DNA of 62,473 nt, the filler included, from Sluysia triapertura (Eukaryota), in the NCBI GenBank assembly GCA_046118255.1. It is 4 parts of 4 records of this genome, joined end to end, with 100 filler letters (N's around TTAATTAATTAA, not from the genome) between each part and the next. Parts side by side here need not be neighbours in the genome. Positions count along the whole stretch, not along the records: positions 1 to 17,701 come from JBJNIA010185834.1; 3 more parts are not named here. One strand, written 5' to 3'. The notes under the pieces are model-generated. The model did no database searches. It saw only the letters and a list, made by a program, of their open reading frames with translations, and was not told the DNA's origin. Below, one piece after another: positions 7,690 to 9,980 of the stretch (position 1 is the stretch's first letter; every line of letters starts with the position of its first letter). The translations under genes were made by a program, and so were the position numbers.

Positions 7690-7990
7690 TTATTACCCGA
7701 ACTTAAAGAATATAAAACTGCATTATCAAAGATAACTAAAATAATGGGAGAAAAGTATAAAAGTACGGATATACGTGAATATATAATTAATGGACAATAT
7801 AAAACCATTATTACAAAACAATGTTGGTTTTAATAAGGAGAGACTTAAAATTATAATAACCTACACAATATTTCAATGTACTAAAGCTGTGTTAATACAT
7901 AAAGAAAAAATAGACAGTATTTAAAATTTTATTGATAAGAAACTTGGTACCTGGATAAAGGAACATGGAGTATGGAAAATTATTATTAAA
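7690..7990 (+). pseudogene. Bcl-2-like domain, copy 1 (one frameshift, one stop)
   Basis: LLPELKEYKTALSKITKIMGEKY...QYKTIITKQ/[frameshift]VGFNKERLKIIITYTIFQC...FIDKKLGTWIKEHGVW; BH2-like W at 7952 and 7973. Confidence 0.65.
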
Positions 7991-8097
7991 GAAAAAGAAG
8001 AAAAGAGTAAGCTCAATGAACCACTTAATTTAATATCGAAATGGATTACTAAAATGGAAATTCAAATGAAATAATTCCACAATTTTGTATGTTAATA

Positions 8098-9980
8098 AAT
8101 AATATACTTTTTATAATTGTTCTATTAGCATTATTTGAAATTCTTAAAACAAATGCTTTTAAGATTTTGATTGTAGTCAACCACAAATTGGTAGAAAATT
8201 TTCACTATTGAATACTGAAGATTGTCCGAAACCAAGACCAAATAGAGTTAGAATAAAAGCTATGAAAATACTAAATATTTACCAAGAAGGAAATTTGATC
8301 ACAACTTTAGTCAGAGAATGTTCGGTTAAAAGGTATGTAGTCATGTAGTATTATGGACATCATAGCCATTCATCAATTATTGATATTTTTAATGTATTAA
8401 AACCATTTAAAATGCTACCCAATAATTGTCGATATGCTTTTGAAATTGGATGTACAAGTCTAAATAAGGGAGATAAACTTAAAATTAAAAATAATGAGAA
8501 AAAAATTTATAATGTAAGAACAGCAGGTAACGTATTATTAGAAGGTAGGTGTGAAAGAGGTTCAATAGAGTACGAAGGGAAAATTTATAATAATGTAGTA
8601 GTACAAGAAACATACGTCGTAAGTTTAAGATCTATCAATGAAAGTTTTGATTTAGGAAAAGAACTATGATGTCGCAACCATTTTGTAAAAGTGATTAAAT
8701 AATCTGTGATACTGGTGAATCAACATTAATATATGAATTAGAAATTTCAGTGTCCTTTAATATTCTTAAAACAAATTAAATTTAATCTAGTTTCCGGATT
8801 TATATATCAAGATGATGAATATTTGGCTGCAAAATAAATAAATAAAAAAAATTTACAAAGATAATTCAGATACACCACAAAGAAAAAGACTTAAAGAAGT
8901 AGAAACACCTACATTATTAATGGCAAATAAAGAAGACTTTGTTTCAAAAAGTCAGTAATTAGATGTGGACAAGAAATTGTAGAAACAAACTACCAAGGAA
9001 TCTACTTGGCTGAAAAGACAATAATTCAAGCAAAGAAAGGTGTAGACACAAAAAATTTGAAACTAAATACATATTTTAATAAGAAAATGGATTTTATTGC
9101 CATTTTAGGATTGATGTCACTAGAAAAAGTTTATCAAACAATGATAACTAGAGACTGTCAGTTAAATAAAGAAATATTAAGGACTAAATTGGTTGTAGCA
9201 ATTACTAACCCAGATCTAGTAGCACCATTACTTCCTTTAGAAGAAGGAATATTTGGCAGATTAATGGTTGAGGTACTATATACTTACAAATGTAAGAATG
9301 TTGAAGTACAAATTAGACTTTGAAAACTAATGTACCAATGAATTACCAGTTACGTATAAAAATCAACCATCTTATTTAGGACCGGTCACAAGAATAATTA
9401 TACCAACTAATAAGTTGAAACCGAAAACATTACACTGTTCTAATGTGATGGCACCAGAATATAAAGTTGATGATAATTTATGGATATCTTTAACTCATTG
9501 CAGTCAAGTCAAAACTCCAAAAATAATTGGATTAACGGAGTTAAAACCGAAATTAAAATTCTCAGCTACAAAGAATATATTCAAATGAAAGCATTCAAGC
9601 AGCTTACAATGAAATATTATTTCCTATCAAAAAAATTGTATACAAAGTAGAAAAGTATGGTAGAATAAATGTTGAATTACTTTTGGGACCAGATCATTTT
9701 AAGAAAGCTGCATATAATACCTTAAAACAAATATAGGGACGGTTTCTAGTATTAGGACAAGCATGTTCAGGATTAATAGGTATATACATAATAATTAAAG
9801 TTATTGCTCTTATAATATATAAAATATCAGGCGGAAACTAATAATAGGATTTATTCCATTTATTTAATCAACATACACATTCACAATTACGTGCTCTCAA
9901 AAAAGAAAGAAAACATTATCATTATAAGCAATTAAAATTGAACAAGTTAATTCAGATGAAATAAATGAAGAAAAATAAAA
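8098..9980 (+). pseudogene. env: Chuvirus (Jingchuvirales)-like envelope glycoprotein, copy 1, near full length with signal segment and C-terminal TM
   Basis: Signal NNILFIIVLLALFE; DCS...FSLLNTEDCP; RECSVKR...YYGHHSHSS; GRCERG; VYQTMITRDCQLNKEILRTKL...EVLYTYKC; CTNELPV..P.TRII; TM FLVLGQACSGLIGIYIIIKVIALII (~9740-9820). These match recalled chuvirus G motifs. Confidence 0.8.

Follow-up and report, generated by a model that had tools for sequence, protein, structure and literature searches.

Whether a Bcl-2-like domain, a hydrophobic segment and a chuvirus-like fusogen found in a row form a new kind of gene cassette is the question raised by a locus of Sluysia triapertura, located in a stretch of 62,473 nucleotides that joins four parts of assembly GCA_046118255.1 (hereafter referred to as the window; positions 1 to 17,701 are from JBJNIA010185834.1). 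A first-pass annotation of this DNA had proposed a candidate new system. Three-frame translation bore out the order on which that proposal was based, a Bcl-2-fold domain followed by a hydrophobic segment and a glycoprotein (G), at 7669-9845 (copy A) and, truncated, at 13134-14555 (copy B). Copy A is part of a decayed Ty3/gypsy element with the order gag, Bcl-2, env, protease (PR), reverse transcriptase (RT), RNase H (RH) and integrase (IN). We consider the locus, with a probability of roughly 85%, to be a dead, compact GAG-ENV-POL errantivirus copy of the Ty3/gypsy type (Metaviridae), kin to the planarian Burro elements, with a fragment of a sister subfamily behind its integrase.

Identity of the locus

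The accessible part of PMC6431247 describes the Burro/GYPSM1 elements of planarians as Gag...BCL2-env-PR-RT-RH-IN in one open reading frame (ORF) when the copy is intact, with a mononegavirus-like fusion glycoprotein as env, and this published layout rules out a categorically new system. This layout was already published in 2019, and what the locus adds by itself is a further decayed copy, a new example of a known arrangement. The pol region carries PR, RT, RH and IN with gypsy-type domains and shares 32-58% identity with the gypsy polyproteins of relatives, and a profile of the integrase C-terminus matched at E 4e-60. Env lies between gag and pol, and its product is a Chuviridae-like, gB-type glycoprotein with a signal and a C-terminal membrane segment (about 9740-9830 in copy A); of the 28 pieces scanned, 4 exceeded the cut-off of the Pfam family PF24664 (Monjiviricetes_fusion), at E 5e-17 to 1e-8. 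The G-to-integrase stretch of the window aligns collinearly with an unbroken ORF of 3,426 amino acids (aa) in one relative (L001), the G of copy A corresponding to residues 490-1032.

The Bcl-2-like domain stands directly before env and env before PR, and the series Gag with a CCHC knuckle, BCL2-like domain, env, PR, RT, RH and IN runs as in the Burro/GYPSM1 description, which also has a ubiquitin/SUMO-like domain upstream of BCL2. In contrast to the 4,873-aa ORF reported there, and to the giant size of this group (ORF near 4,900-5,100 aa, element over 30 kb), the window element spans only about 8.1 kb or about 2,700 codons from gag to the end of integrase (about 5060-13140). Because of this size, we file it as Burro-related and not as Burro proper, a placement made by domain order rather than by a pol tree. 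It further differs from the published elements in the absence of detectable BIR, MATH or ankyrin domains (none among the 28 pieces scanned with Pfam, where decay could mask them) and of detectable long terminal repeats (LTRs), in its decay, and in the second partial cassette after the integrase.

Two other groups of elements were compared. GAG-ENV-POL errantiviruses with gB-type glycoproteins are reported from Platyhelminthes, Nematoda and Bryozoa in the available text of PMC13524379; in some of them, two membrane segments flank the ectodomain. The window element resembles this group in having env before pol, a Chuviridae-like class III glycoprotein, and an ectodomain preceded by a signal or membrane segment and followed by a C-terminal membrane segment; the difference is that the main text and seven supplements of that source, which treat intact elements only, do not mention Bcl-2. 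Anakin is a BEL/Pao LTR retrotransposon that likewise bears a chuvirus-like glycoprotein, as stated in the accessible portions of PMC7642597, PMC10084718 and PMC12440569. Membership in Anakin was rejected on the gypsy-type Pfam domains and the identity to gypsy polyproteins, and the window G also stands apart from the one BEL-like G in our tree.

Table 1. Features of the element and of the fragment behind it (positions in the window).
Feature	Position	Strand	Basis and remarks
Decayed gag	5060..5848	+	Capsid-like piece 5088-5168; CCHC zinc knuckle about 5765-5809
Helical module, preceding the ubiquitin-like domain in relatives	6743..7140	+	Profile of relatives
Bcl-2-fold domain, copy A	7669..7975	+	Two frames, stop at 7922; profile of relatives E 8e-4
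Internal signal of G, copy A	8098..8157	+	Hydrophobic core, then TNA; frame differs from that of the G start
Monjiviricetes-type (herpes simplex virus/gB-type) G, copy A	8163..9845	+	Full length; broken by stops and frame changes; PF24664 E 5e-17 to 1e-8
Aspartic-protease-like piece and protease-RT intervening segment, as in relatives	10010..10703	+	Pfam RVP E 0.14; blastp against relatives
RT, RNase H and integrase, Ty3/gypsy type, decayed	10816..13140	+	Pfam RVT_1, RT_RNaseH, Integrase_H2C2, rve
Bcl-2-fold domain, copy B	13134..13438	+	Abrupt start at the integrase end; Pfam, profile, structure
Internal signal of G, copy B	13530..13589	+	In frame with AFDC; S/A at -3/-1
N-terminal half of G, copy B	13590..14555	+	PF24664 E 2e-17; cut at 14555, the end of the A/B alignment

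The remaining parts of the element (Table 1) were identified from weaker matches. A Gag profile made from three relatives matched at 5088-5168 (E 0.007) and 5645-5809 (E 0.005), both weak, and Pfam gave a weak knuckle match in the gag region. The profile of the relatives' helical and ubiquitin-like parts had its sole six-frame match at 6797-6976 (E 0.025, weak); the ubiquitin-like part at about 6990-7140 is a by-eye resemblance only, Pfam finding no ubiquitin match for 6955-7104, while two relatives gave weak Pfam ubiquitin matches (P0044, E 0.03; L002, E 0.005). Blastp of 10010-10703 against relatives reached E 1e-4 and 8e-9, and the segment after the protease, homologous to that of the relatives, had no dUTPase match in Pfam or PDB; Burro/GYPSM1 elements have a dUTPase-like segment between PR and RT. 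The base composition of the window is AT-rich (GC 20-30%), and its genes and the relatives of the element point to animal DNA.

Relatives and the single reading frame

A search of the full protein library with a piece of G gave 51 proteins, of which 27 were scanned with Pfam and 22 were read in their upstream parts; a cluster look-up added two proteins, and a metagenome scan (at least 592 candidates, at least three confirmed) added three loci (L001, L002 and L003), the census of relatives being small. We examined 15 natural sequences in which G is embedded in a longer frame, P0052 being excluded as a cluster-mate of P0002. A Bcl-2-like domain, selected by its GGW motif or by eye, was present in six (P0004, P0005, P0030, P0044, L001 and L002), whereas five others, in which a single frame leads from a Gag knuckle to G, lack it (P0003, P0009, P0020, L003 and the BEL-like P0025). 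In the remaining four (P0002, P0007, P0015 and P0019) the upstream part was too short or too chimeric to be judged. A profile of the six found no further member among 56 proteins under E 0.1. On these sequences, the Bcl-2-fold domain appears to be an optional accessory, present in some relatives and absent from others.

In five of the six relatives with the domain (P0004, P0005, P0030, P0044 and L001), Bcl-2, linker, signal and G share one frame, with 48-78 aa between GGW and G; this spacing is 45 aa in L002. The frame extends from Bcl-2 through integrase in L001, and P0044 shows the order Gag, knuckle, ubiquitin-like domain, Bcl-2 and G. Together with the cleavage-site pattern described below, these frames support the retroelement polyprotein of Bcl-2, internal signal and G that the first-pass annotation had envisaged. 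Protein word-index searches returned no matches, one of them being confined to proteins of 3437-5000 aa and hence uninformative.

The relatives have further features of their own. Repeated aspartic-protease-like domains occur between G and RT in L001:2-10282, P0005, P0007, P0009 and P0052 (up to seven Pfam stretches in P0052), and an antisense ORF of 496 aa with an RNase_T (DEDD) exonuclease match (E 1e-5) lies just behind the polyprotein at L001:10617-12107 (-). The P0015 record fuses a mitochondrial ribosomal protein L47 domain to the signal and the start of G, probably an insertion junction or a gene-call chimera.

The Bcl-2-fold domain and its motifs

In copy A, the Bcl-2-like part occupies frame 1 at 7669-7830 and frame 2 at 7826-8071, whereas copy B has an ORF at 13139-13486 (frame 2). 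A gap-free alignment of the two cores, which span Bcl-2 homology (BH) motifs BH1 to BH2, gives 25 identities in 50 positions, with a single stop inside copy A; this count was already given in the first-pass annotation and was reproduced on recount. The profile made from the six relatives alone detected the domain of each window copy (E 4e-7 and 8e-4), with no further six-frame match at E < 1. When a five-sequence profile (copy B and four relatives) was searched against PDB chains, the best 60 of 104 matches were exclusively Bcl-2-family chains (best E 0.0028). A single-sequence fold of the domain reached a predicted local distance difference test (pLDDT) of 53. Comparison of another low-confidence model (pLDDT 52) placed Bcl-2-fold structures in all top 17 ranks (Z 7.9-5.8, root-mean-square deviation 3.2-5.0, 90-103 aligned), so that a Bcl-2 helical bundle is recovered, if weakly. 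The best structural matches were viral Bcl-2-fold proteins (poxvirus F1L and DPV022; herpesvirus M11 and BHRF1; African swine fever virus A179L), which are also Bcl-2 folds carried by selfish elements; they are stand-alone genes, whereas the window domain lies inside a polyprotein.

The domain was maintained in active elements. Ratios of nonsynonymous to synonymous change (dN/dS) between copies A and B were 0.24 and 0.29 for Bcl-2 (49 and 48 codons) and 0.10 for G (118 codons), all rough since dS exceeded 1; one of the five pairs (G 2) was out of register and dropped, and the signal pair was saturated. The value of about 0.25 therefore indicates that the Bcl-2 domain was kept by purifying selection.

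The motifs of the domain are only partly canonical. BH2 (W-I-x-x-x-G-G-W type) is intact in copy B, reads GVW in copy A, and has GGW in all six relatives, which were chosen for that motif. In contrast, the NWGR signature of BH1 is missing: in the register of the Bcl-xL alignment from the five-sequence profile search, the glycine is replaced by E, T, S or N in all eight copies (two from the window, six from relatives), and the following residue is basic in seven of them. According to the accessible part of PMC2836074, this glycine is retained even in the divergent F1L, and its mutation abolishes pro-survival activity in Bcl-2 and in the Bcl-2 of Kaposi's sarcoma-associated herpesvirus (KSHV). 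Given this loss, canonical anti-apoptotic action by classical BH3 sequestration appears doubtful, and a non-canonical role of the domain would be at least as likely.

Topology of the polyprotein and a possible role of the signal

The hydrophobic segment NNILFIIVLLALFE of copy A starts at 8098 (frame 1), with FDC at 8166 (frame 3); in copy B, NNVLFVIILLAMFG from 13530 and AFDC at 13596 are both in frame 3. The (-3,-1) rule for signal peptidase, applied at a site fixed two residues before [AGT][FY]DC, holds for 15 of the 16 Gs that are embedded, copy B among these 16 (background 0.116), this being a simple rule and not a SignalP prediction. The hydrophobic core comprises 10-17 residues and ends 4-8 residues before the site. 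The same site agrees with the rule in 6 of 8 stand-alone Gs, where it follows an N-terminal signal, and the segment precedes G equally in the five elements without Bcl-2. Because its build and site are the same with or without Bcl-2 and in stand-alone Gs, we read the segment as the own signal of G, used internally, and not as a Bcl-2 anchor by origin.

In active relatives, one long ORF would encode Gag, a helical/ubiquitin-like module, Bcl-2, a linker of 45-78 aa with the signal, G, PR, RT, RNase H and integrase, an order pieced together across relatives. The segment would act as an internal signal sequence that leaves the upstream part in the cytosol and sends the G ectodomain into the lumen of the endoplasmic reticulum (ER). 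Signal peptidase would cut two residues before A[FY]DC, and the C-terminal membrane helix of G would return Pol to the cytosol. This topology (cytosolic Gag/Bcl-2, luminal G, cytosolic Pol), which we regard as highly probable, would explain how an envelope gene can lie in frame between gag and pol, and it leads to simple predictions that could be tested on the Bcl-2 domain of elements of the Burro type, so far unstudied.

After the cut, the signal would remain as the C-terminus of the upstream product, which is Bcl-2 if present and otherwise Gag-side sequence, and Bcl-2 would therefore be tethered to the membrane at least briefly. This is the mechanism proposed in the first-pass annotation, and it is a reasonable one; the signal stub is a plausible tail anchor. 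Viral Bcl-2-fold proteins mostly have a C-terminal anchor of their own. Cleaved signals are directed to the ER and frequently undergo a second cut by signal peptide peptidase, which counts against a lasting anchor; that Bcl-2 would still be anchored once freed by the protease of the element is a guess to which we give slightly less than an even chance. We see an even balance for and against the proposal that, while the envelope is being made, the domain protects the host cell or modulates it through something other than the classical BH3 groove. More tentatively, the Bcl-2 fold lacking the BH1 glycine may, across a broad range of GAG-ENV-POL retroelements, be an optional, selected accessory immediately ahead of the internal signal of the envelope, for which signal peptidase turns that signal into an ER tail anchor, yielding an ER-resident, non-canonical regulator made one-to-one with the fusogen. 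If so, such a regulator might act on ER stress, autophagy or innate signalling.

Alternatively, the stub could serve as a genuine and permanent tail anchor, and the domain, once freed, could act as a classical anti-apoptotic Bcl-2, keeping fusogen-expressing cells alive by binding BH3 motifs. The retained fold and BH2 motif, the purifying selection and the constant position 45-78 aa ahead of G agree with this, and in the available text of PMC13465017 Burro1 is reported to use a captured anti-apoptotic B-IAP to protect planarian stem cells (BURRO1 is also transcribed and PIWI-controlled, according to the accessible part of PMC8532177). However, the Trp-Gly of BH1 is replaced throughout, whereas the glycine is kept in F1L and needed in Bcl-2 and KSHV Bcl-2 (PMC2836074, as far as available), and the hydrophobic core is short and of the same build in elements without Bcl-2. 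We consider this combination of lasting anchor and classical Bcl-2 unlikely.

What the locus and its relatives add is of modest but genuine value: the Bcl-2 module also occurs outside giant elements, is patchy among relatives, evolved under purifying selection and departs from the canonical BH1. The literature searched contained no mention of purifying selection on the Bcl-2 domain of such elements. Nor did it mention tail anchoring, the optional nature of the domain or the loss of its BH1 glycine, points that the primary Burro papers or the Repbase entry may cover.

The second copy behind the integrase

The first-pass annotation had treated the two sites as a conserved cassette; both copies are indeed present, but they are not independent. 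Copies A (7677-9145) and B (13134-14555) share 67% DNA identity over 1495 columns. Copy B begins at most a few bases from the motif that ends the integrase and breaks off in the middle of G, while contigs of two sequencing runs extend beyond 14555 into further G sequence, and none of the five relatives with sequence past the integrase shows a GGW or [AG][FY]DC motif there. For these reasons, the best reading of copy B is a piece of a sister subfamily that a rearrangement placed behind the integrase, and two independent cassettes were rejected. It would instead be a native second cassette if a subfamily placed Bcl-2 and G in frame after pol, or if the element had two envelopes. The start of copy B so close to the integrase end and the abundance of B-like sequence in run X1 speak for such an element, but the truncation, the low identity to copy A and the lack of these motifs in relatives make it improbable. 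In run X1, which may stem from the same source as the window, 10,354 contig pieces fell on 4000-15600, mostly at 90-95% likeness, a figure that is not a copy number but fits a dispersed multi-copy family.

Several observations concern the sequence after the integrase. In all five relatives with post-integrase sequence, the frame continues for another 336-1536 aa (L001:8900-10282, L003:7500-8521 and the C-termini of P0003, P0007 and P0052), and this extension seems to include a signal, a small ectodomain and, in at least four, a membrane helix, suggesting a second, non-G membrane protein with no Pfam match. In the window, the summed contig depth is also high at 14556-15220, after the truncated copy B. 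A by-eye proposal that 14560-14840 is a further integrase tail was unsupported, Pfam and profile scans giving no match. A Cys-rich frame of 120 aa with a hydrophobic end (15151-15513), without a useful Pfam match, is possibly a remnant of a post-integrase membrane protein.

Points against the assignment and frame breaks

A number of results weigh against the account given above. Paired LTRs were found neither by repeat search nor by self-BLAST in this old, rearranged copy. All Bcl-2 scores are weak: the Pfam Bcl-2 model matched copy B only (E 0.0026, under the curated cut-off), matched three relatives weakly (E 0.001, 0.2 and 0.055) and gave no match in P0030, L001 and L002; a single-sequence PDB search reached Bcl-2/Bax only at E about 0.8, ranked after a Na/Ca exchanger match; structural Z stayed below 8; and Foldseek had no match at E <= 0.001 (best E 0.1). 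The ESM Atlas returned only low-scoring phage clusters and nothing relevant. The high dS and the simple cleavage rule noted above belong here as well, as do two frame observations: copies A and B are broken between Bcl-2, signal and G, so that the single frame is seen only in relatives, and one relative (L002) has an in-frame TGA at 3058-3060, behind the Bcl-2 linker and ahead of the signal, and no Met follows this codon, a single case. The assignment of the Bcl-2 domain is accordingly weaker than that of G, but the Pfam, profile and structure results agree with one another and together point to a Bcl-2 fold.

The frame observations could also mean that Bcl-2 and G are made at different levels, through stop read-through, a frameshift or a splice, rather than as a uniform polyprotein, the frame changing between Bcl-2 and the signal in both window copies as well. 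However, no break occurs at this place in five of the six relatives with the domain, and since the window copies are broken throughout, pol included, their breaks look like decay. We therefore rate expression at different levels as quite improbable, a little below a native second cassette. The TGA of L002 itself is a nonsense change or a read-through site.

Origin of the glycoprotein

In a midpoint-rooted tree with several long branches, built from 219 columns of the N-terminal part of G, a branch with 99/97 support separated both window Gs, 13 gypsy-embedded Gs and P0015 from 11 stand-alone Gs and one BEL-like G. The presence of Bcl-2 requires four changes on this tree, of which the well-supported branches force only one. 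Counted by eye, the G part of P0015 agrees with the ENV of the published Smed_errantivirus_1 in 104 of 111 residues, and this match ties the window group to published GAG-ENV-POL errantiviruses. The grouping with published members is thus indirect, the Schmidtea mediterranea ENV type of PMC13524379 (in its accessible text) being placed in the same G group through P0015.

A recent chuvirus insertion was rejected on the grouping with gypsy-embedded Gs. A scan of viral contigs, a weak test, gave 104 pattern matches and 0 confirmed relatives, and no chuvirus genome with an upstream Bcl-2. That G is an endogenous chuvirus fragment landed in a retroelement, with an upstream helical domain that is Bcl-2-like by chance, would suit a PF24664 model built on Monjiviricetes proteins, sub-threshold Bcl-2 scores throughout and the lack of a relevant Atlas match, but it is largely refuted and extremely improbable, because G clusters with retroelement-embedded rather than stand-alone Gs and is collinear with an unbroken G-Pol ORF, and because Bcl-2 was ranked first by both the sequence profile and the structure comparison.

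Other features of the window

No tRNA was found. A G+C-rich motif beginning with TGG lies upstream of gag at 4717-4735 and presumably resembles a tRNA primer-binding site. An 83-bp direct repeat (76%) flanks the element region at 1867-1949 and 15518-15595 and is too short for an LTR call. Pieces of E3 UFM1-protein ligase 1 (PF09743) with internal duplications at 638-1610 look like a rearranged pseudogene. An uninterrupted 451-aa frame at 36801-38156 (-) resembles an MFS_1 transporter (E 4e-50) and is probably a host gene exon, and a second gypsy RT/RNase H, a small remnant, is located at 48376-48826.

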